Shown piece by piece: positions 1 through 26,952 of a stretch of DNA of 64,000 nucleotides. Below the pieces are notes generated by a model that had not been told where the DNA came from, did no database searches, and saw only the letters and a list, made by a program, of their open reading frames with translations. The translations under genes were made by a program, and so were the position numbers. Numbering within the stretch: position 1 is the first letter of the stretch; every line of letters starts with the position of its first letter. Source of the stretch: Gammaproteobacteria bacterium (GTDB lineage: Bacteria; Pseudomonadota; Gammaproteobacteria; Enterobacterales; Kangiellaceae); NCBI GenBank assembly GCA_013373375.1, contig JABXHY010000018.1:43113-107112 (forward strand), read 5' to 3'.

Positions 1-2
1 GC

Positions 3-1394
3 TTTAATCCTTTCAAAGGCATGGTAGAGCAAAAAGTCATTGTGCCAGAAGAAACCAAAAGTGTAATCAATAGCGCTTTTTCTGGACCCTGCGTTGCTGT
101 CACTAAGATGGGAAATGTATATGTCAGGAAAAATGACAAGTGGAATCCAGTAACTCAACCAAGTCCAATCCGTAAAATTTTACCTGATAGTCATTGTGAA
201 AAACTATGGACTCTTTCTGAGTTTAATCAGAATACAGTGAGTATATATTTGCTGGCTTATGACGAAAAAACAAACAGTTGGGAAAGTAAATTAGTGGAGC
301 AAGAGAATGGCTTTGACATCGAAGATTTCGTTCTGAACTTCCAACAAACACAGCTCGCTGCTTATTTTTATGATGACGTTTATCCTAAAATGAAAAATCA
401 AATTCGCCAATACGCCAGCCTGTCGTCCATCATTCGGACTTTACAACCTCATCCGTATTGGCGCGTAATTGATGGATCTACTGGTGATGGACGCTTTTTA
501 GTTGAAGTACAATCACCAACTCTTTCTCCAACCACTTATCTTGCGGACCTTACGAAAAGGAAACTAGTTAAATTAGATTCGAGATTGAAACAAGCTTCCG
601 ATACCTGGGTGACGACCAGTGCCCTTAAAGTAAAATCGAGTCACTCTTCGGAGTTAGTTGTTTATTTAACATCCTCGAGAGAAAAGGAGGATAAGCAAAA
701 AATCAAACCGCTAATTGTCAAACTGCATGGCGGACCTTTTGAAATTAGAGATCGATGGCGATTTGACCCAGAAGCTCAGTGGTTGGCCAAAAAAGGATTT
801 GATGTCGTCGCCATTAATTATCAGGGCTCAGGTGGTTTTGGTAAAAAGTTTCAATCGGCGGCCTATGGCAAGCTGAGAGATACCTTAGAAGATGATATAG
901 ATAATGTTCTTGATTACTTAGAGGCCAGTTTAGGCTATCAAAGAGAGTCTGCGTGTTTAATGGGCAGCAGTTTCGGCGGTTTTGCCGCTCTGTCTGAATT
1001 AATTGAAAACAATGAGAATTATAAGTGTGGCATTTTAATATCAAGCGTAACCGATCTAAATGGGATCTATCAGTCACTCGATAATCCCGAGGAAAAAGCT
1101 CAATTCGAAGAAAGATTCGGCGATATAACTAGCCATTCGTGGCAAAACGAAAATAATTTGGTTTCCCAAATTGGAGAGTTAAAACGTCCTTTACTGGTCA
1201 TCTACTCAGACGCCGACCCATTAGTGCCGAGTGAGCAAAGTAAGAAATTATTGAAACAATTAGAAGTATTAAATAAGACGCACCAATCTCTAGTACTGAA
1301 CATTAACTCACACAATCTAATTGATGCAGACTCAAGGACAGCAATTTATGAAAAAATAAATGAGTTTTTGTTATCCGTAAACCTAGTCAATTAA
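3..1394 (+). CDS. S9-family (prolyl oligopeptidase-like) serine peptidase, 5'-truncated by the window edge
   Basis: LHGGP, NYQGSGGFG, nucleophile GSSFGG, Asp in DADPLVP and His in NSHNL. The frame is open from base 3, so the ATG at 21 is probably internal. Confidence 0.85.
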   Translation, partial: FNPFKGMVEQKVIVPEETKSVINSAFSGPCVAVTKMGNVYVRKNDKWNPVTQPSPIRKILPDSHCEKLWTLSEFNQNTVSIYLLAYDEKTNSWESKLVEQENGFDIEDFVLNFQQTQLAAYFYDDVYPKMKNQIRQYASLSSIIRTLQPHPYWRVIDGSTGDGRFLVEVQSPTLSPTTYLADLTKRKLVKLDSRLKQASDTWVTTSALKVKSSHSSELVVYLTSSREKEDKQKIKPLIVKLHGGPFEIRDRWRFDPEAQWLAKKGFDVVAINYQGSGGFGKKFQSAAYGKLRDTLEDDIDNVLDYLEASLGYQRESACLMGSSFGGFAALSELIENNENYKCGILISSVTDLNGIYQSLDNPEEKAQFEERFGDITSHSWQNENNLVSQIGELKRPLLVIYSDADPLVPSEQSKKLLKQLEVLNKTHQSLVLNINSHNLIDADSRTAIYEKINEFLLSVNLVN

Positions 1395-2224
1395 CTTTCT
1401 AAGTTAATTTTCTGCAACTGGAATGTTTGCATTTGGTTTGTAATCGGGCATAAAAATTCTATTTTATAGGCGGTAAGTTGCAAGTCCTTATCGGTTGAAG
1501 TGTCTGTGTTATACAGTCGATCACCGACAATCGGAAATCCTTTGCTTGCTAAGTGCTTTCGTATTTGATGTTTACGTCCAGTTTCTATTTTTATTTTTAG
1601 TAAACTGTTTGTTCCTTCGTAATGAATGCATTCAACGTGACTGATGGCTGACTTTCCATCTATTGGAGTGTCTATAGTAACATTGCTATCATATGGCCAC
1701 TTACCAGACACTACCGCTTGATAGTATTTGTCAACTGTTCGAGTGGAAAATAAGTTTGATAATTGACCAGCTGCCTTTTTGCTGTGAGCAATTAAAATTA
1801 AGCCACTGGCGGCTCGATCGAGCCGATGAACAATAAAAGAATTACGTTGCGGCTTTAAGTTTTGTTCTGCCCATCGCGCAATGGTGCAGTGATCTCCCCA
1901 TTTTGAACCTTGACTCAATAGTCCTGACGGCTTATTCCACACACTGTAATCGGACATGTCTTTAATGAGTTCAGGGTTAGGAATAGAGGCACTTAAAACT
2001 TTTGGATCATAATACATATCCAATTGACTGCCCGCTGACAGAACTTTTTTTGCACGACGAACTCGTTGTGTTCTCTTCCCCTGAGTTAGCCACACACAAC
2101 CCTTATTTAGAGCATCTTTGAGTTTTTGTTTTGATAAGGTGCAGTTGCGCGCAAGTGTTTCAATAACTGTTTCATTTGATTCGGTAATTAGAACTTGGAT
2201 TTCGAGTTTCTTCTGGTCAGACAT
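1391..2224 (-). CDS. RluA-family 23S rRNA pseudouridine synthase with N-terminal S4-like region
   Basis: NKPSGL, catalytic HRLDRAASG, IETGRKHQIRKH and GDRLY motifs. Stop overlaps the S9 peptidase stop (TTAA 1391-1394). Confidence 0.9.
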   Translation of the reverse strand: MSDQKKLEIQVLITESNETVIETLARNCTLSKQKLKDALNKGCVWLTQGKRTQRVRRAKKVLSAGSQLDMYYDPKVLSASIPNPELIKDMSDYSVWNKPSGLLSQGSKWGDHCTIARWAEQNLKPQRNSFIVHRLDRAASGLILIAHSKKAAGQLSNLFSTRTVDKYYQAVVSGKWPYDSNVTIDTPIDGKSAISHVECIHYEGTNSLLKIKIETGRKHQIRKHLASKGFPIVGDRLYNTDTSTDKDLQLTAYKIEFLCPITNQMQTFQLQKINLES

Positions 2225-2234
2225 ATTGTATCAA

Positions 2235-4010
2235 TTAAGCTTCTGAGGAAGGGGTATTCCCATCGGTATGGTAATTTTTATATTGCTCCGAGGGCGGTAG
2301 CGCGTATATGTTGACTCGATTACGACCATCACGTTTTGCTTCGTACAACGCATCGTCAGAATGTTTCAGTAGTTTGTCGAGCTCGTATCCCGACACACGA
2401 CTAACGGTTAAGCCAAAACTGGCGGTTATTTGGAACTCTTTACCCGTTTCAGTCGTATTAATTTCCATTAAACCTTTTCGAATGTCTTCTGCAATTTCTC
2501 GTGCTTTATCCAGTTCGCAACCCGGAAGCAGAATAGCGAACTCTTCTCCTCCAAGTCTTCCAAAAATATCGATTTTCCGAATGATATTTTTAATTTTCTC
2601 AGGAATTTTTTGTAATACCCAATCGCCTACGGGGTGACCAAAGGTGTCATTAATATTTTTGAATTTATCGAGGTCAAATAAAATAAAACTCACTGCATCA
2701 GCTCTGCTTTCGCATGCTCTAAGTACGCTTTCACTCTCTGCGGTAAAGTGTCGTCTGTTTGCAATTCCTGTCAAGGAATCGAACTCCGCAAGTTGTCTTA
2801 ATCTTACATGGGTTTTTCGAGTTCGGTAAGCCCACATTATCAAGAAAGTAATGATTATACCCAGCAAAACTATAAATAAGGTTTTTGTTTTTGCTTCTTG
2901 CTTCGACAGTATTTTTTCTAGTGTAAGAGCTTCATTTTTCTTATTTAACAGCTCTATCTGAATGTTTTTCTCTTGAAGCTGATGGCTGGCCGTTTGAATT
3001 GCAATTTGCTTTCTTTTATTTTCATCTAAGTTCAATCGTTCAAATTCGTAGTATTTTTCAAGCAGCTCGACAGATTTTTCACCATTACCTCTGAGTTTTT
3101 CAATTTCATAAAGTGTTTTATAGGCGGAGACCACCGATTTGTAAGGTAGCTTATCTTTGTTTAATGAAATGGTTTTTTTACTTAAAGATTCTGCCGCAGC
3201 ATAACTTTGTTGTTTAAAGTAACTTTGCGCCAGGATATTGTAAAACTCTGCAGTCAATACTGGGTAGCCAATTGACTCAACCACTTTTAAGTGAGGCGCG
3301 AGTAATTCACTGGCCTTTTTATATTGTTTATCCGATAACAGTTTTTTCCCTTTTAAATGACTATTAAACTGTACCCATAACTCTTCGTTAGCTTGTGAGC
3401 ACGTCTCTATTGCTTGCTCAAAAAAAAACTCTTTGTCTTTCAATTCAACACCAGCTTCATTCATCAATGAATATGCCTTGCACTTGACCTTTAAATCTGA
3501 AGATGAGTTTAGCAGGCGCTCAGCATTATTATAGCCTAAACCATACTCACCAAGTTGGTTGTAAAAGCCAGCCTTTATTCCCGACGCATAAGTATTTAAT
3601 TCTTCATTAACTATTTGGTCGAGAAATTCTTGCGCTTCATTAATGAGCAACAATCCTTCCAACCAGTTTTGTGAGATTGTGTAAATATTGACCAGTAAAA
3701 GAGTGGCTTTAGTTTTTATTTCACTTGATGTTGTGTTATTTCTTACTTTTTCAGCCAGCGTTTCTGATTCAGAAATTTGGCCCTGTAAGCTAAACGACAG
3801 CGCTTTTAAGTACAATTGATAATAAAGGAAGTCTTGGTTTGAATGAGTTGAGTAGTCAAGCTGATTAACGGTGGAAATAAATTCTCTTACGTTTTCAGTC
3901 CTTAAATTCTCAATTTCCTTTAAACGTGCAAATGCATTGTCATTTTCGGAGGCAAAAGCTGCCTCCGAAAATGACAAATATAACAAAAAAATGAATAGTC
4001 GGTTGATCAA
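2235..4010 (-). CDS. Membrane-anchored diguanylate cyclase with periplasmic TPR-like helical sensor
   Basis: N-terminal signal peptide (MINRLFIFLLYLSFSEAAFA), ~350 aa helical repeat region, one TM (FIVLLGIIITFLIMWAY), then DSLTGIANRR, DLDKFKNINDTFGH, RKID I-site and GGEEF. TTG start overlaps the upstream stop (TTGA). Confidence 0.88.
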   Translation of the reverse strand: MINRLFIFLLYLSFSEAAFASENDNAFARLKEIENLRTENVREFISTVNQLDYSTHSNQDFLYYQLYLKALSFSLQGQISESETLAEKVRNNTTSSEIKTKATLLLVNIYTISQNWLEGLLLINEAQEFLDQIVNEELNTYASGIKAGFYNQLGEYGLGYNNAERLLNSSSDLKVKCKAYSLMNEAGVELKDKEFFFEQAIETCSQANEELWVQFNSHLKGKKLLSDKQYKKASELLAPHLKVVESIGYPVLTAEFYNILAQSYFKQQSYAAAESLSKKTISLNKDKLPYKSVVSAYKTLYEIEKLRGNGEKSVELLEKYYEFERLNLDENKRKQIAIQTASHQLQEKNIQIELLNKKNEALTLEKILSKQEAKTKTLFIVLLGIIITFLIMWAYRTRKTHVRLRQLAEFDSLTGIANRRHFTAESESVLRACESRADAVSFILFDLDKFKNINDTFGHPVGDWVLQKIPEKIKNIIRKIDIFGRLGGEEFAILLPGCELDKAREIAEDIRKGLMEINTTETGKEFQITASFGLTVSRVSGYELDKLLKHSDDALYEAKRDGRNRVNIYALPPSEQYKNYHTDGNTPSSEA

Positions 4011-4219
4011 GCTTGCTTCTCTTCTTTTTCGGGTATCTCGCTTGGCTCTTCTTGCGGAGTCTCCTCTGTTTCATCATCATCCTCTGCTGGTGCAATCATA
4101 CAAACGATGTCTGGTAGTGATTTTTTGTACAGCTCGAGCTCTTCAGGAGATAACTCAGTAATACTTTTGTTGGTCAGAGTCTTTTCACCAAGTTCTTCGA
4201 GTAACTTTATAACATTCAT
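4007..4219 (-). CDS. Split-borosin RiPP precursor peptide (short helical leader, DIVCMIAP core, acidic follower)
   Basis: 70 aa directly downstream of the borosin methyltransferase with SD AAGGA. N-terminal LLEELG helix, hydrophobic core I38-A45, and 13 Asp/Glu among residues 46-67. Confidence 0.8.
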   Translation of the reverse strand: MNVIKLLEELGEKTLTNKSITELSPEELELYKKSLPDIVCMIAPAEDDDETEETPQEEPSEIPEKEEKQA

Positions 4220-4238
4220 GCGCTTTTCCTTTTGGATT

Positions 4239-5027
4239 TTAATTGATGACTTTCAAAGAGTGTTTTTGCTTTTTTTTTCTAGGTATTAATTTTTTCGAAG
4301 GAGGAATTATTAATGTCGATTTCTGTGATAGTTGTTGAACACTCAGTTCCGATAATTTGCAAGTCAATTGTATCGCATTTTCAACGGCATTCGATGCTGC
4401 CTCGTAAACAATTACTTTATGGTCGAGAGGAAAGTCTTCTGCCAGTAAATCGGTTAGTTCTAACAAATGTTGTTCATTTTTATTCAACTGGGTATGGCTT
4501 TTATCACCTGCAGCCATCACTTGCCATAAAATTAGATAAGCCGTTGGGTCGATGTTTCTTTGGTAAAACATGAACTGACTGGCTTCAAAATGTTGGCAGC
4601 CGTATTTACCGGGATCAATACCTAAGTCGGCGTATAAACAGTCTGCAGCTGAGATACCTGGCAACATTATTGCTTCGAATCCTTCTGCTTTTGCTTGTAG
4701 AATAGCTTTGTGAGAAGGATTAACAAAAACACCTGGATGACCATAAAAAGCAGCGACCGCCTTTTTACCTTGTCGTACTGGTGTTAGTAATGCTTCGGTC
4801 ATTTCTTGATAGGTGATCTTGCGTGACTTACCTTTATTGTAATACTGCTGTAAAGATACAACATTTGGATGAATGTCTTTTAGCCATAATTCAAAGAGAG
4901 AATCTGAAGATGCAGCAAATACAATATCAGCGCTCTTTAGGGCGTGGCGAGCGATTGGCGTTATGTGTGCACCTATTGTGATGCCGACGCCAAGACATAT
5001 CAAACTGCCTCGATTTCCCTCATTCAT
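4239..5027 (-). CDS. Borosin-type SAM-dependent backbone alpha-N-methyltransferase (OphMA/SonM-like)
   Basis: GSLICLGVG, QQYYNKGKSRKITYQEM (catalytic Y/R/Y as in OphMA YYDNGKSRLNTY), FYGHPGVFVNPSH, LPGISAADCLYADLGIDP, GCQHFEASQF. ATG 5027 preferred over TTG 5042. Confidence 0.9.
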   Translation of the reverse strand: MNEGNRGSLICLGVGITIGAHITPIARHALKSADIVFAASSDSLFELWLKDIHPNVVSLQQYYNKGKSRKITYQEMTEALLTPVRQGKKAVAAFYGHPGVFVNPSHKAILQAKAEGFEAIMLPGISAADCLYADLGIDPGKYGCQHFEASQFMFYQRNIDPTAYLILWQVMAAGDKSHTQLNKNEQHLLELTDLLAEDFPLDHKVIVYEAASNAVENAIQLTCKLSELSVQQLSQKSTLIIPPSKKLIPRKKKQKHSLKVIN

Positions 5028-5091
5028 GAAAATGTACTTCAATTGGATTCACTTTTTGATGCGCCATGATGCAATAAAAATGTGAACTATT

Positions 5092-5607
5092 TCAAATAGT
5101 TTCTTTGATTTTTGAGTAAAGTTGTACATCGCTGGGAGTATTTTTTTCACAATTTGACTTAACAGGTTCAAAACCCAGTCGATTAATCAGTTTTATTCCT
5201 GCTTTATTGGCTACCTTTAGATTTGCAAAAATATTGTTCAGACTAAGCTTATCGAAACCATAGGTCACTACGGCCGATACACAATGAAAAGCAATCCCTT
5301 TTCCTTGCGCCTCTCGTTGCAGAATAATGCCGATTTCTGCTGACCGCTTAGATAAACTTAAATCTTTAAATGCGATAAATCCAAGGGGAGTTGTTGTGTT
5401 ATTCCTGCAAAGAACAAACATCATGTAGTTGGCTGCAGATTTTTGGGTCGCTGTTAGGGTGGTGAGAAAGGCCGATTTTGCTTGTGCAGTGTTTAGCTCG
5501 ACTCCGGTGTATTTCATTAGTTGAGGGTCGGTATAAGTTTGAATATAAAACTTTTCATCTTCAGCTTTTAACTCGCGAAATGTGACTCGGTCTGTTTTGA
5601 AATACAT
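5092..5607 (-). CDS. RimJ/RimL-type GNAT N-acetyltransferase
   Basis: MYFKTDRVTFREL start typical of Acetyltransf_3, AEIGIIL, acetyl-CoA loop QGKGIA, NKAGIKLINRLGF. ATG 5607 preferred over TTG 5628. Confidence 0.8.
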   Translation of the reverse strand: MYFKTDRVTFRELKAEDEKFYIQTYTDPQLMKYTGVELNTAQAKSAFLTTLTATQKSAANYMMFVLCRNNTTTPLGFIAFKDLSLSKRSAEIGIILQREAQGKGIAFHCVSAVVTYGFDKLSLNNIFANLKVANKAGIKLINRLGFEPVKSNCEKNTPSDVQLYSKIKETI

Positions 5608-5909
5608 AAGGTTATAACGCTTTTGCAAAACGCTCGATGTTTGGAAGTGGGTAATTTTACTAAATGCTAACCCAAGCTTATGTTGAGGTCATCAATTCCT
5701 TGGTCGAATCTTGCTTAAAAAGTGGGCCTGACGTAAGATCATGCCCCTTTTTATTCAGGGGTGTGAGGCGCAATTAAGTCGACCATTTGCTTGTTTTGTA
5801 GGTAAAGTTTTTTGAGCTGGCTGTACAAAAATAGAGCAAGGTAATCGAGCACACCAACCATTCCCTGATTGTTTAATGATAAGACAAAGTTAATTTTGAC
5901 AGGATTTTT

Positions 5910-7691
5910 ATGATGATGCGCAGTCACTATTGTGCCGACTTAGTCGGATTACCGGAAACTTCCGAAGTCGCTATTGCTGGCTGGGTTCATCGTCGACGAG
6001 ATTTGGGCGGGCTAATCTTTTTACAAATACGCGATCGAAGTGGCATTGTTCAGGTGACGATTGAACCAGACCAAGGTGATGTGTTCGAAGCTGCAGATGA
6101 ATTGCGCAGCGAGTATGTGGTTTTAGTCAAAGGTAACATTCGCAATCGACCTGAAAATATGGTGAATCAAGACATGGTGACTGGCGCTATAGAAGTGGTT
6201 GCCAGCTCAATTGAGTGCCTAAACAAGTCAGAAACACCCGCGATTTTGATTGACGGTCATGAAGATGTCGCTGAGGAAACGCGTCTTAAATATCGCTATC
6301 TGGATTTACGTCGCCCTGAAATGGCGAAAAAGTTTTTATTTCGTACGAAGCTAACTTCAGCACTGCGCCGATATTTGGACGCTGAAGGCTTTTTGGATAT
6401 GGAGACGCCCATTTTAACGAAAGCGACTCCTGAAGGTGCGCGTGATTACTTGGTTCCAAGTCGCACGCACAAAGGTTCTTTTTTCGCATTACCGCAATCA
6501 CCTCAGCTTTTTAAACAATTGTTAATGATGAGTGGTTTCGATCGCTATTACCAAGTCGTCCGCTGCTTTCGTGACGAAGATTTGCGCGCCGATCGTCAGC
6601 CAGAATTTACCCAGCTCGATATCGAAACTTCGTTTATGGACGAAGAGGGGATCATGGGGCTTATGGAAAACATGATTCGAAGCGTGTTCAAAGAAATGCT
6701 GGATGTTGAGCTACCAAATCCATTTCCACGTATGCCTTACAGTCAAGCGATGGAAAAATACGGTTCCGACAAACCTGACTTACGAGTTGATATGCCGATC
6801 CACACGGTTGACGACATAATGCAGTCGGTCGACTTCAAAGTATTCAGCGGGCCCGCTAACGATACAGAAGGAAGAGTAGGTGTTCTTAATCTTAAAGGCG
6901 GCGCAGAACAAGTCAGCCGAAAGAAAATAGACGAGTACACCAAGTTTGTCGGTGTGTATGGAGCTAAAGGATTAGCGTTCATTAAAGTGAACGATCGAGC
7001 AGCAGGCATTGAAGGTTTACAGTCGCCAATTGTTAAGTTTCTTACACCAGACGTTGCTGAGCAATTATTGGAACGTGTTGGCGCTGAAACAGGTGATATT
7101 CTGTTTTTTGGATCGGATAACTCGAGAGTGGTTGCCGACGCACTTGGCGCGCTGCGTTTAAAATTAGCAAATGATTTCGAGTTGTTGAGTAATCAATGGA
7201 AACCATTATGGGTCGTCGACTTTCCAATGTTTGAAGAAGATGATGGTCAATTGCAAGCGCTTCATCATCCATTCACTTCGCCAAAAGAGCTTGATCCGGA
7301 AGCGCTTAAAGCTAATCCGACCGGTACATTGTCGCGAGCTTACGACATGGTATTGAACGGTTGTGAAGTGGGCGGTGGTTCAACTCGTATTCATAACACA
7401 GACTTGCAACAAACCATTTTTGAAATATTGGGAATTTCAGAAACCGAAGCACGAGAAAAGTTTGGCTTTTTACTTGATGCGCTTAAGTTTGGTTGTCCGC
7501 CACATGGCGGGATTGCGTTTGGTTTGGATCGACTAGTTATGTTAATGGTTGGGGCTTCGTCAATTCGTGATGTTATTACCTTTCCGAAAACAACAACAGC
7601 AGCTTGTCCACTAACCGAAGCGCCAGCAAAAGTGTCTGACGCGCAGTTGAGTGAATTAGGCATTGAGTTAAAAAAGAAATCGGCGGAATAA
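5910..7691 (+). CDS. aspS: Aspartate--tRNA ligase
   Basis: MRSHYC start, [54 protein letters not shown]. Probably the non-discriminating Asp/Asn type common in this context (not determined). Confidence 0.98.
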
Positions 7692-7700
7692 AAAGTAACC

Positions 7701-7739
7701 CTAGGATTTTAACAAAGGAGTCAAACAAAGGAGTTAAGT
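7701..7739 (+). repeat. 13-bp tandem duplication containing the Shine-Dalgarno (AACAAAGGAGT x2) plus a third AGGA
   Basis: AACAAAGGAGT at 7711-7721 and 7724-7734, AGGA at 7703-7706, yebC ATG at 7740. Confidence 0.8.
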
Positions 7740-8483
7740 ATGGCTGGACATAGTAAATGGGCCAATATAAAACACCGAAAAGCCGCGCAAGACGCTAAAC
7801 GTGGAAAGATCTTTACCAAGATCATTCGTGAACTGGTGGTCGCTGCGAAATCTGGCGGACCTAATCCAGAAGATAATCCAGGACTGAGAGCCTGTATTGA
7901 TAAAGCGCTTGGCGCGAACATGAAAAAAGACACCATTGAAAAGGCTATCGCACGTGGTGCTGGCAATACCGATGGTGACAACTATGAAAATTTAACATAT
8001 GAAGGTTATGGGCCTGGTGGTGTAGCGGTTCTGGTTGAGTGTTTGACCGATAATAAAAATCGCACGGTTGGAGAAGTCAGACACGCGTTTACCAAGCATG
8101 GCGGAAATTTAGGCACATCAGGATCCGTCGCCTACCTTTTTGATAAAAAAGGCCAGATGATTTTCGGTGATGACATCGAAGAAGATTCTCTTATGGAAGC
8201 AGCTCTTGAGTCAGGAGCTGAGGACGTCGTTACGCATGATGATGGTTCTTTTGAAGTGTTGACGACTCCTGAAGAATTCATGACCGTTAAAGATGGTATT
8301 GTGGCAGCGGGCTTCAAACCTGAAAATTCGGAAGTTGCTATGTTGCCCTCTACCCAAGCGGAGCTAGAAGCTGAAGATGGAGCAAAAGTATTACGTTTAG
8401 TTGAGCGTCTGGAAGATTTAGATGACGTGCAAAATGTTTATACTAACGCAGACATTCCAAGTGAAGCCTACGAATTACTTTAA
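7740..8483 (+). CDS. yebC: YebC/PmpR family protein
   Basis: [45 protein letters not shown]. Canonical aspS-yebC-ruvC position. Confidence 0.97.
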
Positions 8484-8534
8484 TTTTTACCGAGTTGTGG
8501 TGTCGGTCGAACTTAGATATTGAACTGAACTTAT

Positions 8535-8572
8535 AAAACCTCGATAAGCCAATCGCAGTCGAGGTTTTTTTT
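8535..8572 (+). terminator. Rho-independent terminator after yebC
   Basis: AAAACCTCGA (8535-8544) / TCGAGGTTTT (8559-8568) stem followed by a T run. Confidence 0.7.
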
Positions 8573-8666
8573 ATGCCCGTTCGTGATACCTTAAAGCTAA
8601 CCACTAAGCATTTATTTTTTTGAGACTGTGATTACCCGTATGCAACTGAGTGTTAAAGAGTAATTT

Positions 8667-9185
8667 ATGGCAATTATTTTGGGGATCGATCCGGGCTCAA
8701 GGATTACTGGCTTTGGCATTATTGAAGCTCAGGGAAGCAAGATTCGGTATGTCACCAGCGGTTGTATCAAAATTAAAGAAGCACCGTTATCTGAAAAGCT
8801 GTTGCAAATTTACGATAATCTGTCAGAAGTGATTCGAAAATACAATCCGACAGAGGCCGCTATTGAGCAGGTTTTCATGGCAAAGAACGCGGACTCCGCA
8901 TTAAAATTAGGGCAAGCCAGAGGCGTTGCTATGGTTGCCGCTGCCAATCATGCGTTGTCCGTTGCGGAATATTCGGCGCGACAAATTAAACAAGCTGTTG
9001 TGGGAACCGGCGGCGCGGATAAAGCACAAGTACAACATATGGTGACATCACTGCTATCGTTATCAGCGCAACCGCAAAGCGACGCAGCTGATGGCTTAGC
9101 TGTCGCGATTTGTCACTGCAATACAATGCAATCAATGGTAGCCCAAATGGGTGCCAATAAAAGAAGAAGAGGGCGAGTACGTTGA
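8667..9185 (+). CDS. ruvC: Holliday junction resolvase
   Basis: [34 protein letters not shown]. Confidence 0.97.
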
Positions 9186-9790
9186 TTGGAAGACTAACAG
9201 GCATACTTTTAGAGAAAGCTCCTCCAGAACTGGTGATTGACGTCAACGGAGTCGGTTACGAGTTACAAGCTCCAATGACGACCATATTTAATTTGCCTGA
9301 GAACGGGCAAAGAGTAACCTTGTTCACGCATCTATCGGTGAGTGAGAATGCACATAATTTGTTTGGCTTTGGAGCCAAACAAGATCGACAATTGTTTCGG
9401 GAATTAATCAAAGTTAATGGGGTTGGACCTAAACTGGCCGTTGCTATCTTATCGGGTATGACAACCGATGAGTTTGTCCGATGTGTCCATGATGGTGAGG
9501 TGTCTCAGTTAGTTAAGTTACCGGGTGTTGGTAAAAAAACGGCAGAAAGACTAATCATCGAAATGAAAGATCGATTAAAAGATTGGGGCTTTACCGCAGG
9601 TTCGAAGTCTGAATCAAGCGCAGAATCATCGTCGAACTCGTCGTCTGACATACAGCGCGAAGCTGAGAGTGCATTAATTGCCTTAGGTTACAAACCACAA
9701 GATGCTGCTAAAGCCGTTAGTCGAGTTAAAGGTGAAGCGTCGACCAGCGCAGAATTAATTCGGTTAGCTTTAAAGAATATGGGAAAATAA
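9182..9790 (+). CDS. ruvA: Holliday junction branch migration protein A
   Basis: [50 protein letters not shown] start overlaps ruvC stop. Confidence 0.97.
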
Positions 9791-9855
9791 CCTGACGTCA
9801 GTTAATTGATGAATAGATCTGACAGGTTGATAAGAATATTAACGAGTAGTTTATT

Positions 9856-10878
9856 ATGATTCATGAAGATCGGATTATTGCAGGTGATTCTCAGACGCCA
9901 GAAGAAGAAAGGTTTGACCGGGCTATCCGGCCGACCAAGTTAGAAGACTACGTCGGCCAGCCGCAAGTAAAAGAGCAAATGGAGATTTTTTTACAGGCGG
10001 CGAAATCAAGAAACGATGCATTGGATCATGTGTTAATTTTCGGCCCTCCTGGGCTTGGAAAAACCACACTCGCGAATATTATTGCCAATGAAATGGGCGT
10101 TACGATTAAGTTTACATCTGGACCTGTGTTGGAAAAGGCCGGTGATCTGGCAGCTTTGCTGACCAACCTTGAAGAAAATGACGTTTTATTTATTGATGAA
10201 ATCCACCGTTTAAGCCCTGTTGTTGAAGAGATTTTGTACCCCGCCATGGAAGATTATCAAATTGATATCATGATTGGTGAGGGACCCGCAGCGCGTTCGA
10301 TCAAGCTCGATTTGCCGCCGTTCACGTTGGTGGGCGCAACAACTCGTGCAGGTCTTTTGACCTCTCCACTGAGGGATCGATTCGGTATTGTGCAACGTTT
10401 GGAGTTTTATAATATCGATGAATTGACCGATATAGTCGCGCGTTCAGCTGCAATATTGGGCTTGCAAGCCGATTCGGAAGGTGCGCGAGAAGTTGCTCGC
10501 CGGTCACGAGGAACACCGAGAATTGCTAATCGCCTATTGCGACGAGTGCGAGATTACGCGGAAGTTAAAGGTGATGGTTCAATCAGTAATGAAATCGCAG
10601 AAAAAGCGTTAAATATGCTTGAAGTGGATGAGCAGGGTTTCGACACCATGGATCGCAAACTACTTTTGGCGATTATCGACAAGTTCAGCGGAGGTCCTGT
10701 TGGGCTAGATACTCTTGCTGCAGCTATCGGCGAAGAGCGAGATACTATTGGGGACGTCATTGAACCATTCTTGATTCAGCAAGGTTACATCCAACGCACG
10801 CCGCGAGGTAGAACGGCCACTCAAAGGGCCTACCAGCACTTTGGTATTATCCCGCAAAAACCCGATCTGTTTGATTAA
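9856..10878 (+). CDS. ruvB: Holliday junction branch migration ATPase
   Basis: IRP, Walker [10 protein letters not shown], Walker [22 protein letters not shown]. Confidence 0.98.
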
Positions 10879-22452: not shown

Positions 22453-25400
22453 CTATTCTTGGTGATGCTTAATAAATTCAATTGTCTCCTCGCGAGACAT
22501 TGGTTTTGCGAAGTAGTAACCTTGTACGCTGTCTGCTCCGAATTCTCGAACGAAATCTAATTGCTCAGCAGTTTCTACACCCTCAACGACGCTAGTTTTT
22601 TGCAATGACTTGGCCAAATCTATAATCGTTTTGATAATAGTTTCAGCTTCTTTCTGTTCGCCAATTCGCGCCACAAAGCTTCGATCAATTTTGAGCTTTT
22701 CAATTGGAAGTTGGTGTAAATATTTTAATGACGAATACCCAGTACCAAAATCATCCAGTGCGAGATCAATTCCAATCTTCTTTAGCTTTCGTATTAAAGT
22801 TAATGCCACTTCCATATCCGTCATCAGCATACTTTCTGTAAGTTCAAACTCAAGCGCTCCAGGTTGAATCTGGTAATGTGCTAGCCTTTCTTTCATATAA
22901 AGGTCAAAATCATTTTGCTTAAAATGCCGAGCAGATAAATTAACCGCCAGTCCTATTTCAAAATCATGACTATGCCATAATTGTAGCGTTTCAAGCGCAA
23001 GCTCGATCAGCTGTTCAGTTAGCGGAATAATTAGTCCAATCTCTTCAGCCACAGGAATAAAGTCTATCGGTGAAATTATCTCGTTATTACTTCGTTGCCA
23101 GCGCGCCAGTGCTTCAAATCCTGCTATTTTGTTTGTATGAAGGTCGATTTGTGGTTGATATAGAAGGGTAAACTCATTGTTCTTTATTCCTTCTCGTATC
23201 ATTTTTTCCATCGACATACGATTGATAGCTTCATCATTCATTGAAGCAATGAAGTACTTAAAATTATTTCGCCCAGAATTTTTTGCATGATACATTGCCA
23301 TGTCAGCATGTTTTAAAATTATATTGGCTTCACTCCCGTCGTCAGGAAAAACAGAAATTCCAATACTGGGTGACGAATTTACTTCATGCTCTCCGATTGT
23401 AAGAGGCGAAGCCATTTTTTCTAATATTGTATTGGCGATACGACTTGCAGTATCTATGGAGTAAATATCTTCGAGCATTACAACAAACTCATCACCACCA
23501 AGTCTTGCTACTGTATCGTTTCGACGAACTGCACTTTTTAAAATTCCGGAAACTGCTATTAAAAGTCTATCACCTACTTCGTGACCTAGTGAGTCATTCA
23601 CTTGTTTAAACCGATCGAGATCAATGAAAAATACCGCAACCATTTGCTTTCGACGCTGTCCATTCTCAATTGCATGTGTTATTCGATCCATCAGTAATGC
23701 GCGATTGGGCAAACCAGTAAGCGGGTCATAATTGGCTAAACGTTTTAACTCTTCTTGAGCGGCTTTTTGCTCACTGATATCAGTGGCACTAATGACGTAA
23801 TAGACTTCAGAGTCATTATTTTTGAATTTATTAACGCTTACCAGTACTGATAGAGGCTCTTGATATTTTCTTAAAACTAACCCTTCAGTTTCAAATTCAT
23901 TGTTTGACTCCAGCCGGTGCTTCATTGTTTGTGCAATGGGTAACTGTGAGTCTGGATTGACAAGGACCGACAATGGCTTTTCTACCACTTCATTAAGATC
24001 GATACCTGTGGTGTTGAAAAACGAGTGGTTGGTCACTTTTACATTAAATACTTTGTCGAGAATAATAATAATGTCTCGAGTGTTGTCGAATGCCTCAAAG
24101 AATAAATCCATTTTATCTTGTGTTGACTTGGTATCTGTAATATCAGTGAAAGTTCCTGTGACCCTTATAGGATCTTTATTACTGTTGACTTCCGTTACTT
24201 TTGCTAAGTCGCGATACCAACACCACTCATCTTGCTGGTTTTTGAGGCGGTATACATGTTCGAACGATGAATCTGGTTGAGATAAAAACCTTCTCCACTT
24301 GGCTGAGTAAGCGTCTTTATCGTCTGGATGAATGAAATTGATTTTTTCACTCAAGTTTATGGCATCATTTTCATTTTCGACTAAATGATTTAGTCGCGGT
24401 TCAAAGATCTCGTCATTTTTTGCATGCCAATCCCACATACCACTATTTGATCCATTAAGTGCTAACTGCAGTCTTTCTTCATTGGAAGCTAATATTGTGT
24501 TGGTTTGAAGGAGATATTTTTGCCGACGATAGCGTTGATATCCAATAGTTGAGATGATTGCAAGAGCAACTAGCACATAGGTGGTTAGCGCAATAGGTGA
24601 TAGCCAAGGTGCTGGATGGTTGACTATAGACAATACATAAGGTTCTGATAACTCACCATTAGTGTAGTCCACTGCTGCAATATAGAGTTTGCTTTTGCCT
24701 GGTTTAAACTTTGGAAATAAAAGAGTGTTATTAAATGTTGAAGTAATCTGAGTGGCTGAGTCTCCCTCTATCCAGTAATCGTATTTTACCTGTTCCGTTT
24801 TATTAAATAGTCGTGCTGAGTATTCGATGTTTAAACCAAAGTCATCATACTCAAGTTCAATGGTATTGGCGTCAGAATAATTTCGATTACCTTTTGATAG
24901 TAAAGAGACTTTGCTAGGCATAACATTAATAACATGATTATGCTCGATATCAAGTCTTTGCAAGTCGATAAATACCACCCCGCGAGTTGTACCAAATGCC
25001 CAGTTATCGTCATTTATATTTACAGTAGTGCCACCAATAAACTCATTACTGATTAAGCCATCTGTTTTTGAAAATTTTTGATTGCTGTAATTCTCACGAT
25101 TGATTTTTATTAGACCGTCATTACTGGTGACCCAAACAAAATTTTCATCGTAGGTAAAAACATCCAGAAAATTACTAGTGTTAAGTTCAGTAGGTGGAAT
25201 GATTTTCAGTGTTTCGCTCGAATCGACATCTACAATGTAGAGCCCAAGTCCTGAATAGTTTATCCAATACTGGTTATCTACTTTAAGTATTGATTGTGGA
25301 ACAGCTTGGGTTGAGTCATCTTTTTTCAGTTCGTGCAAGACTTTAGTTTGTTGAGTGGTTCGGTCATAAGTGACAACAGAGTTATACTTAGCAAAAAATA

Positions 25401-26952
25401 GTTGATTGGTCGAAGGTTCACTTTTCAAGATAAATTGAAATGCATTATCGCCTTTTTGCTGTGTTAGGCCTTCTATTTCACTAAACTCTCCCGATTCAAC
25501 ATTGAATAAGAAAACGTCTTCGTCCTGCAGTACGAGCAAGTTATCTTCATCGACCGGTGAAACAAAGTAAGTTGTTTTGTTTAATCGTTTAGTTTGTTCT
25601 GGTGTTAGTACAAGTTCAACTTCTGACTGGTCATTTTTGTTTAATAGTTTAATGCCTTTTGTTCGATGTAATATTGTTCGAGAAGGGCTAGTGAATATCT
25701 GATAAATTGACTCATCGCTAAAAGGTGATTTTTCATCTTTGTTAACGAAATACTGTTCAGTTGTGTCATCAATTAAATTGTATTTCGCCAGACCATGAGT
25801 CGTACCAATCAATAAATGATTTTCGTCTAGTTTACGCATAGCATAAACATTATTACTCGGTAGGCGTTGTGGCGTGCCTCGTTGATTGGATATTATGCCC
25901 GTTACGGCTCGGTTCGGTCGCCATTTAAAAAAGCCGTCTTCTCGACTACTGAGCCATAGATTTTCTTCGCGATCGACAAATAAACGCGTTATATCATTAT
26001 CGTAAAGTTGGTAAGGCGTGTCGGAGTATCGAATTAAATGTGAAAGCTTATTGTTTTCATCGATAAAATAGAGCCCATTGTCGGTTGCTGCATAAATGGT
26101 GTCATCGTAATCAATCATATGCCAAATATTTCGACTGGCGTTTACTTCATAAATTGAGTCCGCTGTTATCTCTTCATTCCGCTCCAGAGATGACATTATG
26201 GAATTTAGGGTAATTCGATATAGTCCTTCTACGGTTGCGATGTAGATGTAACCCTGATTAAAGTTGAAAATTCCTTTAACATTGTTTTCATCGGAGTTTG
26301 GCGGCGCTATGGTATGGTTTAGCTTTCGAAAGACACGGTTTTTTAAGTCATAGGAGAACAAGCCAACTGAAGTTCCAATGAGTAAATAGTTTTTTATGCG
26401 ATATATGGATCGGATGATGTCCTGATCACCGACGTTACCAGGCAGGTCTGTTATTTGGAATAAATAAGAATATTGATCACTTGCTCGATCGTATTGGTAG
26501 ACTTGATACAGGCTTATTAGCCATAGATTATTTTGGTTGTCTTCATATACTTCAGTTATCCTTTGGGCTGAAGTTTTTTCGCTCATACCTTTAGGAAGTG
26601 TAACCGCTGTAAAGGATTCTGTTTCGGGTTGATAGCGATAATTTTTATTTCTCCCGCCACTTACCCAAGTTTCGCCTTCTTTATCAGTGTAGAGCAAAGT
26701 GATGTAGGCCGCGTTGAAAGCATCTGTCGGGCCGTTGACGGGTCGTACATCATAAGCGTCGTATCGGTTAAGTCCCTCTTCTGTCCCAATCCACAAATAT
26801 CCCGCTTTGTCTTGAGTTAGCTCCCATACGACGCTCTGACTTAATCCGTCTTGAGTTGATATATGTTCGAGCTGTATTGGAGCGGATATCGAGTAACCGA
26901 TCTGAGGGGCTATAAGTGTACAAAAAATGCTCAGAAAGACATATTTTTTCAT
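22453..26952 (-). CDS. Membrane sensor GGDEF-EAL protein: periplasmic Reg_prop beta-propeller, TM, PAS domains, GGDEF and EAL
   Basis: Signal peptide, DGLSQSVV...QDKAGYLWIGTEEGLNRYD propeller repeats, TM (PWLSPIALTTYVLV), PAS (IHPDD...WYRD), RRND I-site with GGDEF, EALARW, DDFGTGYSSL, EGVE, QGY. Confidence 0.92.
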   Translation of the reverse strand: MKKYVFLSIFCTLIAPQIGYSISAPIQLEHISTQDGLSQSVVWELTQDKAGYLWIGTEEGLNRYDAYDVRPVNGPTDAFNAAYITLLYTDKEGETWVSGGRNKNYRYQPETESFTAVTLPKGMSEKTSAQRITEVYEDNQNNLWLISLYQVYQYDRASDQYSYLFQITDLPGNVGDQDIIRSIYRIKNYLLIGTSVGLFSYDLKNRVFRKLNHTIAPPNSDENNVKGIFNFNQGYIYIATVEGLYRITLNSIMSSLERNEEITADSIYEVNASRNIWHMIDYDDTIYAATDNGLYFIDENNKLSHLIRYSDTPYQLYDNDITRLFVDREENLWLSSREDGFFKWRPNRAVTGIISNQRGTPQRLPSNNVYAMRKLDENHLLIGTTHGLAKYNLIDDTTEQYFVNKDEKSPFSDESIYQIFTSPSRTILHRTKGIKLLNKNDQSEVELVLTPEQTKRLNKTTYFVSPVDEDNLLVLQDEDVFLFNVESGEFSEIEGLTQQKGDNAFQFILKSEPSTNQLFFAKYNSVVTYDRTTQQTKVLHELKKDDSTQAVPQSILKVDNQYWINYSGLGLYIVDVDSSETLKIIPPTELNTSNFLDVFTYDENFVWVTSNDGLIKINRENYSNQKFSKTDGLISNEFIGGTTVNINDDNWAFGTTRGVVFIDLQRLDIEHNHVINVMPSKVSLLSKGNRNYSDANTIELEYDDFGLNIEYSARLFNKTEQVKYDYWIEGDSATQITSTFNNTLLFPKFKPGKSKLYIAAVDYTNGELSEPYVLSIVNHPAPWLSPIALTTYVLVALAIISTIGYQRYRRQKYLLQTNTILASNEERLQLALNGSNSGMWDWHAKNDEIFEPRLNHLVENENDAINLSEKINFIHPDDKDAYSAKWRRFLSQPDSSFEHVYRLKNQQDEWCWYRDLAKVTEVNSNKDPIRVTGTFTDITDTKSTQDKMDLFFEAFDNTRDIIIILDKVFNVKVTNHSFFNTTGIDLNEVVEKPLSVLVNPDSQLPIAQTMKHRLESNNEFETEGLVLRKYQEPLSVLVSVNKFKNNDSEVYYVISATDISEQKAAQEELKRLANYDPLTGLPNRALLMDRITHAIENGQRRKQMVAVFFIDLDRFKQVNDSLGHEVGDRLLIAVSGILKSAVRRNDTVARLGGDEFVVMLEDIYSIDTASRIANTILEKMASPLTIGEHEVNSSPSIGISVFPDDGSEANIILKHADMAMYHAKNSGRNNFKYFIASMNDEAINRMSMEKMIREGIKNNEFTLLYQPQIDLHTNKIAGFEALARWQRSNNEIISPIDFIPVAEEIGLIIPLTEQLIELALETLQLWHSHDFEIGLAVNLSARHFKQNDFDLYMKERLAHYQIQPGALEFELTESMLMTDMEVALTLIRKLKKIGIDLALDDFGTGYSSLKYLHQLPIEKLKIDRSFVARIGEQKEAETIIKTIIDLAKSLQKTSVVEGVETAEQLDFVREFGADSVQGYYFAKPMSREETIEFIKHHQE

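Follow-up and report, generated by a model that had tools for sequence, protein, structure and literature searches.

Bacterial borosin clusters now number more than 1,500, and the literature describes their biological function as elusive. Among the split borosin clusters, GGDEF is the commonest Pfam domain (56% of the clusters), the GGDEF genes go with several borosin types, with unrelated precursors and in several phyla, and acetyltransferases of the PF13302 family are found in about 26% of the clusters; in the type X borosins, mostly from Xanthomonadales, proteins that combine TPR, transmembrane (TM) and GGDEF modules carry the methyltransferase as a fusion at their cytoplasmic C-terminus (bioRxiv 10.1101/2021.12.24.474128). 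Here we analyze what is almost certainly a type IV split-borosin operon of the kind represented by the Shewanella son and sam clusters, which includes a gene for a putative TPR/TM/GGDEF diguanylate cyclase, and address the relationship between the borosin precursor and this cyclase. The operon is located in a stretch of 64,000 nucleotides (nt) from a gammaproteobacterium of the family Kangiellaceae (assembly GCA_013373375.1, contig JABXHY010000018.1, positions 43,113 to 107,112; hereafter, the window). All coordinates, unless a different locus is named, are positions in this window, and the operon occupies 1391–5628 on its minus strand.

Two described clusters are closest to this locus. The son cluster of Shewanella oneidensis encodes the methyltransferase SonM (SO1478), the precursor SonA (SO1479), a GGDEF protein (SO1480) and a cation efflux protein (SO1481); shewanellamide A, the product of this cluster, is a 16-mer from the C-terminus of SonA in methylated form, which was found in cell pellets, not in supernatants, and showed no antibiotic activity. 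The sam cluster of Shewanella amazonensis encodes the pepsin-like peptidase shewasin A (SamP), a PF13302 acetyltransferase of the GNAT superfamily, the methyltransferase SamM1 and the precursor SamA1 (bioRxiv 10.1101/2024.01.09.574750). [quoted passage not shown]

In the window, five open reading frames (ORFs) follow each other head to tail, in the order GNAT acetyltransferase, SonM-like methyltransferase, SonA-like precursor, TPR/TM/GGDEF cyclase and RluA-family pseudouridine synthase, with intergenic distances of about 64, 19, −4 and 10 nt. As in the son cluster, there is a stand-alone SonM-type methyltransferase, a precursor of about 70 amino acids (aa) with a borosin-binding domain, and a neighboring TPR/TM/GGDEF protein; unlike the son cluster, in which SonA is tail-less, a GNAT is absent and an efflux-pump gene is present, the window precursor is tailed and has a shorter leader. 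With the sam cluster, the window shares the GNAT, the methyltransferase and a precursor in which a hydrophobic motif is followed by P-A-E-D and an acidic tail, the differences being that no pepsin-like peptidase is encoded in the 64 kb, that the P1 residue is Ala rather than Phe, and that the text of the sam paper omits the cyclase. The type X proteins consist of the same three modules and have the same predicted topology (TPR periplasmic, GGDEF cytoplasmic), whereas in the window the methyltransferase is encoded upstream as a protein of its own; no cyclase-methyltransferase fusions were found among the 120 closest homologues of the window cyclase or the best 150 representatives. The window locus brings no new gene content, its architecture and the association of its genes having already been described. 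The initial annotation of this DNA, made from the sequence alone, proposed that the precursor and the cyclase form a peptide signal and receptor pair. The co-occurrence of GGDEF genes with borosin loci, on which that proposal drew, is indeed on record, along with the TPR/TM/GGDEF topology; our literature search found no paper in which binding of the peptide to the cyclase is proposed or tested.

Conservation of the precursor-cyclase gene pair

Loci encoding related cyclases were retrieved with a pattern (from an alignment of 8 sequences) for which no region of the cyclase other than the periplasmic domain and the stalk was used, and which is blind to the borosin genes. The search covered one genome per species (the GTDB set) and the JGI metagenomes; the 28 + 12 loci obtained are a sample among the matches listed rather than a census, and a locus was considered assessable if it contained a full-length homologue along with enough upstream DNA. 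Among these matches, a precursor-type ORF is located directly upstream of the cyclase gene, on the same strand, in 32 of the 32 assessable loci, and a methyltransferase is encoded in 31 of the 32; the identity between the periplasmic domains across these loci is just 22–39%. The loci come from Xanthomonadales, Alteromonadales, Kangiellaceae/Pleionea and Marinicella, with Luteimonas, Arenimonas, Shewanella, Colwellia, Thalassotalea, Kangiella, Marinicella and Alteromonas among the hosts. Cyclase orthologues without borosin genes, which the initial annotation had singled out as a check on its proposal, are thus not frequent in this sample.

All-against-all clustering of the neighboring ORFs identified as conserved partners the GNAT (21 of 25 loci, directly upstream of the methyltransferase), the methyltransferase (23 of 25), the precursors and an A1 family peptidase (9 of 24). 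No transporter or exporter was found among the conserved neighbors in these 25 loci; the initial annotation had remarked that the window operon contains no exporter. The Shewanella loci L004, L006, L009, L012 and L045 have the gene order pepsin-GNAT-methyltransferase-precursor(s)-cyclase, and individual look-ups of Rhodanobacter thiooxydans and Shewanella psychrophila gave the same picture of the cassette. In Pleionea mediterranea, the order is GNAT-methyltransferase-precursor-cyclase-cyclase-RluA, beside aspS-yebC-ruvCAB, as in the window, which has one cyclase.

The unit that is kept most strictly, and that is duplicated, is the precursor gene together with the cyclase gene, not the set of enzymes; this is the new observation of the present analysis. 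A Colwellia metagenome-assembled genome (L015, 2821–4970) has a precursor and a cyclase, with no methyltransferase or GNAT within 3.3 kb upstream. In Marinicella sp. W31 (L019, 9706–16005), the order is precursor-cyclase-GNAT-methyltransferase-precursor-cyclase, and in R. thiooxydans (L043/L044, 5315–10127), methyltransferase-precursor-precursor-cyclase-precursor-cyclase. Between paralogous cyclases, the identity of the periplasmic domains is 18–38%, compared with 33–66% for the GGDEF domains. Taken together, these gene neighborhoods provide good support for a functional pairing of precursor and cyclase. Two further observations concern the cyclase copies themselves: the second Rhodanobacter cyclase has GEEEF in place of GGEEF, and a protein of 1125 aa (P0290 in the protein collection) consists of two complete TPR-cyclase units in tandem, as if tandem genes of the Pleionea/Alteromonas type had fused.

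In the window, the two genes of the pair overlap. The precursor ends with ...AAG CAA GCT TGA and the cyclase opens with TTG ATC AAC CGA, such that the TTGA at 4007–4010 is common to the stop codon TGA of the precursor and the start codon TTG of the cyclase. This shared stop and start, described in the initial annotation, was confirmed by direct reading of the sequence and by a separate gene call in a protein collection, which yielded identical products of 591 aa (P0001) and 70 aa (P0121) at 100% coverage. TTG is the first start codon past the upstream in-frame stop of the cyclase frame and gives the N-terminus MINRLFIFLLYLSFSEAAFA|SEN, which agrees in length and character with the N-termini of homologues that start with ATG; a purine stretch, AGAAG, is located 5 nt upstream of it, and a Shine-Dalgarno sequence, AAGGA, precedes the ATG of the precursor. 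Given the overlap and the weak TTG start, the cyclase would be synthesized only when and where the precursor is translated. Overlaps of 4 nt between start and stop are the commonest overlap class in bacterial operons, and by itself the TTGA overlap implies co-translation, not a special relationship between precursor and cyclase. The distance from stop to start, −4 in the window, is −1 in L014, L015 and L029, +2 nt in L001 and L007, and 9–38 nt in most other loci, with 75 nt in L020 and a maximum of 104 nt in L019.

Predicted architecture of the cyclase and the precursor

The cyclase ORF (2235–4010, 591 aa) encodes, by predicted topology, the TPR/TM/GGDEF architecture known from borosin clusters. 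Residues 1–20 (3951–4010) are a putative signal peptide or N-terminal anchor, in which MINR is followed by a hydrophobic core and AFA|S; this signal-peptide-like sequence was called heuristically, from the pattern of n, h and c regions and the AFA|S site, and by comparison with the N-termini of homologues. Residues 21–376 (2883–3950), predicted to form a TPR superhelix and a coiled-coil stalk, are assigned to the periplasm because GGDEF domains require cytoplasmic GTP. The TM helix, at about residues 377–399 (2814–2882; hydropathy peak 2.48), is followed by the basic stretch YRTRKTHVRLRQ, in line with the positive-inside rule. The GGDEF domain (residues 408–565; 2316–2789) matches the Pfam profile PF00990 over its full length (1–161 of 161, E = 1.4e-45). 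GGEEF is present at residues 487–491 (nt 2538–2552), RKID at residues 478–481 (nt 2568–2579), five residues upstream, which is the canonical spacing of the I-site, and the metal and substrate motif DLDKFKNIND is intact; on these motifs, the protein looks like a catalytically competent diguanylate cyclase. Among the 120 closest homologues, GGEEF is present in all 120 and the I-site in 117, and the layout of signal and TM segments is equivalent in nearly all. The best NCBIfam match of the GGDEF domain is SiaD, at 155 bits, far under the 290-bit cut-off of that model.

The Pfam TPR models remain below threshold for the cyclase (E ~1e-3). An AlphaFold2 model of residues 1–401, built on 30 homologues (mean confidence, pLDDT, 91.7), is an all-helical array of paired helices, with 16 helices and a long terminal helix at 310–400. 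Foldseek assigns a probability of 1.00 to matches with TPR domains, namely, those of LGN/Pins, Rap (from Bacillus and its phages), NprR and subunits of the APC, at TM-scores of about 0.4–0.55 and sequence identity of 12–14%. Two Cys residues of the periplasmic domain, C177 and C204, do not vary among the 30 homologues, and such an invariant pair fits an oxidizing compartment; in the model, the two residues (nt ~3399–3401 and 3480–3482) lie in neighboring helices and probably form a structural disulfide. The features listed for the cyclase in the initial annotation, a signal peptide, a TPR-like region of about 350 aa, a single TM segment, GGEEF and an RxxD I-site, were all borne out by the Pfam search, motifs, hydropathy and the AlphaFold2/Foldseek analysis, with the signal peptide resting on the heuristic call.

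The methyltransferase (4239–5027; TP_methylase, PF00590, E = 6.2e-23) is a stand-alone borosin alpha-N-methyltransferase of type IV. It matches SonM (PDB 7ltc_A) at E = 2.5e-68 over residues 12–252 and the fungal OphMA-type enzymes at E ~1e-44, and its translation contains FYGHPGVF and AADCLYADLG, that is, the YGHP and DCL(F/Y)AD signature motifs of borosins (Imani et al.). The ATG at 5027 is the likely start, with TTG at 5042 as the alternative; the gene call of the protein collection is 262 aa long.

The separate short ORF of 70 aa that starts 19 nt downstream of the methyltransferase gene (4007–4219, read from the sequence) gave no match in Pfam, NCBIfam or PDB when searched alone, and a word-indexed homology search with it found one database relative only. 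Its family membership comes from a profile of the 25 small ORFs located between methyltransferase and cyclase in related loci. The top seven PDB matches of this profile are SonA chains (7ltc_B first), at E = 3.9e-4 to 1.6e-3 over positions 1–52, which identifies the ORF, at the level of sequence profiles, as a borosin precursor. The 25 aligned sequences have in common a helix at the N-terminus (xIxxLExLG), a short hydrophobic motif in which there is usually a single Cys (PDIVCMIA, PDIYCLLF, AIYCMIST), and a Pro with an acidic tail; Pro followed by an acidic run is found at this position in 24 of the 25 precursors, and the tails comprise about 5–33 residues, with a net charge of −4 to −12 in 24 of the 24 loci scored. 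In the window precursor, residues 1–36 (4112–4219) align with the SonA-like borosin-binding (leader) domain in a shortened form, about 15–25 residues shorter than in most relatives. Residues 37–43, DIVCMIA (4091–4111), align with the PDI(V/Y)C, ICM and LLF of homologues and are the predicted site of backbone N-methylation, and residues 44–70, PAEDDDETEETPQEEPSEIPEKEEKQA (4010–4090; net charge −11), form the acidic tail and the predicted released peptide. In the Luteimonas-type loci (L002, 9303–9551; L003, 9296–9619; L031, 64–444), there are two precursors per locus, of which the first stops after ...CMITTPD and is tail-less, like SonA, and the cyclase-proximal copy carries the tail.

The junction DIVCMIA|PAEDDDETEETPQEEPSEIPEKEEKQA of the window precursor is of the same type as the FF|PAEDEPEKEQQ of SamA1, and the whole arrangement, a hydrophobic motif, Pro and a long acidic tail (DIVCMIA|PAEDDDETEE), is that of the sam-type precursors. 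In 9 of 24 genome loci (L001, 7075–8337, L004, L005, L006, L008, L009, L012, L014 and L021), and also in L045 (2708–4606), the gene that immediately precedes the GNAT encodes a pepsin-like A1 peptidase (PF00026, with two DTG/DTGxS motifs). A tblastn search with two pepsin homologues derived from these loci produced no match in the 64-kb window, which is compatible with such a peptidase being encoded elsewhere in the genome. SamA1 releases its unmethylated tail from F|PAED, and with the same motif in the window precursor, the "modified peptide" that the initial annotation took for the product is unlikely to be released in this subfamily. The proposed peptide-cyclase pair holds up in part: the pairing of the precursor and cyclase genes stands, on the 32 loci and the duplications, and the modified peptide as the product probably does not.

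Possible modes of coupling between precursor and cyclase

At one extreme, the adjacency could be incidental, an ordinary GGDEF gene being located downstream of a borosin cluster with TTGA as a routine operon junction. Such overlaps are common, and GGDEF genes are very numerous, the representatives at E ≤ 1e-10 numbering 366,190 (the window cyclase itself matches, at E ≤ 1e-30, about 2,031 representatives of the 50% identity level). Nevertheless, with the periplasmic domain as the only means of retrieval, the borosin genes are present in 31 of the 32 loci among the matches listed, in the same order and orientation and across several gammaproteobacterial orders, and the published frequency of GGDEF in split borosin clusters points in the same direction; these synteny counts effectively refute incidental adjacency, which appears highly improbable. 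A functional link could also exist with no physical contact, if the cyclase is an envelope sensor and cyclic di-GMP (c-di-GMP) regulates the borosin pathway or a shared process, such as biofilm formation or stress response, or if the genes are merely co-regulated. An operon and conserved synteny are equally expected for co-regulated genes of one program, the fact that GGDEF accompanies several borosin types, with precursors that are unrelated and hosts from several phyla, suits a connection through c-di-GMP instead of through one given peptide, and there are cyclase tandems that share a single precursor. This explanation, however, does not account for the precursor, rather than the enzymes, always adjoining the cyclase, for the joint duplication of precursor-cyclase units, or for the methyltransferase-cyclase fusion proteins, and no c-di-GMP-binding domain (PilZ or other) was seen in the cassette proteins in Pfam and NCBIfam scans; we consider it rather doubtful. 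Some direct and specific relationship between precursor and cyclase is, in our assessment, probable. In Pseudomonas, SiaC-SiaD and YfiR-YfiN are cases in which one operon encodes both a GGDEF enzyme and a small protein that binds this enzyme directly and so controls it; unlike SiaC and YfiR, the window partner is a precursor of a peptide that ribosomes synthesize and that is modified after translation (a RiPP), predicted to be methylated and probably cleaved, and no homology to SiaC or YfiR was seen, although no search was aimed at it.

If there is contact, it could occur on either side of the membrane. The idea that the cyclase has its cognate, specific regulator in the precursor, or in the peptide excised from it, takes its boldest form in a periplasmic autoinducer: a precursor-derived peptide would reach the periplasm, bind the concave face of the TPR superhelix and switch c-di-GMP synthesis, in an autocrine or quorum-type circuit. 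The strict retention of the pair, its duplication as a unit and its occurrence without a methyltransferase in the Colwellia locus are in line with such a ligand, as are the best structural matches of the TPR array, which include the peptide-bound Rap/NprR and LGN, and the status of the TPR domain as the fastest-diverging part between paralogous cyclases; the detection of products in pellet extracts is compatible with a periplasmic location. On the other side, any long TPR array matches Rap or LGN at TM-scores of about 0.5, the precursor has no signal peptide, the processing enzymes of relatives are cytosolic, no exporter occupies any conserved position, shewanellamide A was not found in supernatants, and a 27-mer with a net charge of −11 cannot diffuse across the membrane. 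The similarity to the RRNPP receptors of Firmicutes (Rap, NprR and PlcR) extends to a long TPR superhelix and a peptide gene adjoining the receptor gene, and is a likeness at the fold level only. RRNPP receptors are cytoplasmic, with a helix-turn-helix (HTH) or phosphatase effector, and their peptides are Sec-exported and then re-imported, whereas the window TPR domain is predicted to be periplasmic and is TM-linked to GGDEF, with no HTH. A periplasmic ligand of the TPR domain is, on this balance, unlikely, and the TPR domain is the less likely contact site. As a hypothesis, the ligand idea of the initial annotation is reasonable; it was built on a "modified peptide" which, in this subfamily, is probably not what is released.

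Two lines of evidence on this question were followed and abandoned. An electrostatic match of the acidic tail to the periplasmic domain was ruled out because this domain, too, is acidic (net charge between −3 and −21 in 21 of 24 loci), which speaks against the periplasm as the site where a tail with a charge of −11 is bound. Whether the precursor core co-varies with the cyclase domains was analyzed in 24 loci by partial Mantel tests controlling for the methyltransferase. The distances of the core motif and the periplasmic domain are correlated (partial r = 0.51 given the methyltransferase, 0.30 after de-duplication), but the leader, which binds the methyltransferase and served as the control, behaves alike, and with near-duplicates removed, the values for the periplasmic and GGDEF domains, 0.15 and 0.17, respectively, are indistinguishable; co-variation that is not specific to the TPR domain was dropped as evidence either way.

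The reading we favor, with a probability of roughly 0.4, is a modulation of the cyclase at its cytoplasmic side, by the precursor, its product or a methyltransferase-precursor complex, with the TPR domain reading a different cue. By homology to SamA1, SamM1 and SamP, the methyltransferase would bind the N-terminal domain of the precursor and N-methylate DIVCMIA, and the N-methyl mark would license a cytosolic protease, not encoded in the window, to cut before Pro44 and release the unmethylated anionic 27-mer, PAEDDD...KQA, into the cytoplasm, where the GNAT may acetylate a new N-terminus. The precursor, the anionic product or the methyltransferase-precursor complex would then act on the basic juxtamembrane stalk, RTRKTHVRLRQ, and on the GGDEF domain with its I-site, so that c-di-GMP synthesis would be tuned at the cytoplasmic part of the cognate cyclase; the periplasmic TPR domain would sense a separate envelope or external cue, and a link within the cell would thus join the maturation of the borosin to the output of c-di-GMP. 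The cytoplasmic side is favored because shewasin D is cytosolic, the products are cell-associated and no exporter is conserved, and also because the type X fusions place the methyltransferase, to which the precursor docks, at the cytoplasmic C-terminus of the cyclase. The cyclase accompanies both tail-less SonA, with its methylated product, and the precursors with acidic tails, which suggests the shared leader and methyltransferase part, rather than the chemistry of one product, as the element involved.

Several observations weigh against this cytoplasmic coupling. The TPR domain, in the structural model, looks like the peptide-binding kind, and it diverges fastest between paralogues, as expected of a specificity-determining receptor domain. 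Tandems of two cyclases with one precursor exist, in the Alteromonas-type clade (L022–24) and in Pleionea (L041). The window contains no pepsin-like peptidase, its P1 residue is Ala, not Phe, and cleavage at A43|P44 is an assumption; cell-pellet extracts leave periplasm and cytoplasm unseparated, and the cytoplasmic contact is deduced from topology and from fusions reported by others.

Should the precursor or its product control the cyclase, these borosins would not be antibiotics but would serve for signaling, either intracellular or autocrine, and a signaling role would account for the absence of antimicrobial activity of shewanellamide A. c-di-GMP signaling would gain a new class of input, a post-translationally licensed small protein, and a module leading from a ribosomal peptide to c-di-GMP would be widespread in Gammaproteobacteria. 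In the boldest, autoinducer form of the idea, the duplicated pairs of Rhodanobacter and Marinicella would be orthogonal signaling channels; these natural duplications of precursor-cyclase pairs turn the ligand question into a concrete test of orthogonality.

Other genes of the operon and its surroundings

The first gene of the operon encodes the GNAT acetyltransferase (5092–5628; Acetyltransf_3, RimJ/RimL-like, PF13302, E = 9.1e-24), and the last ORF the RluA-family pseudouridine synthase (1391–2224; PF00849, E = 1.8e-32), which starts 10 nt past the cyclase stop. RluA is found in the same position in L001, L029 and Pleionea L041, and is not adjacent in most other loci. It is probably the last, lineage-specific gene of the operon transcript, and in this lineage, the borosin-cyclase cassette appears to share its transcript with a gene for RNA modification. 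Promoter and terminator scans of the window gave no predictions above the shuffled expectation, with no minus-strand terminator within the operon. Among sequencing runs, this DNA was found in a single one, a seawater metagenome, and there are no RNA runs that could show co-transcription.

Convergent with the operon, on the plus strand, is a gene for a serine peptidase of the S9 (prolyl-oligopeptidase) family (21–1394; PF00326, E = 1.6e-27), which overlaps the stop codon of RluA; the peptidase is apparently cytoplasmic, and the gene is kept only in L001 and Pleionea L041. The hydrophobic motif of the window precursor sits between Pro36 and Pro44, and a prolyl oligopeptidase serves the fungal borosins. 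The S9 peptidase was considered as the enzyme that cuts the Pro-flanked core and rejected as a general part of the system, given its restriction to the Pleionea/Kangiellaceae lineage.

On the other flank, aspS, divergent from the operon, begins at 5910, and the block aspS-yebC-ruvC-ruvA-ruvB (5910–10878, plus strand) is syntenic with positions 1–4097 of the Pleionea mediterranea locus (L041). This synteny assigns the window to an uncultured relative of Pleionea, a marine gammaproteobacterium. Farther away, an ORF of 1499 aa (22453–26952, minus strand) contains a GGDEF-like stretch at about 23266–23958, with 31% identity to the GGDEF region of the cyclase, and is the second c-di-GMP-related gene of the window.

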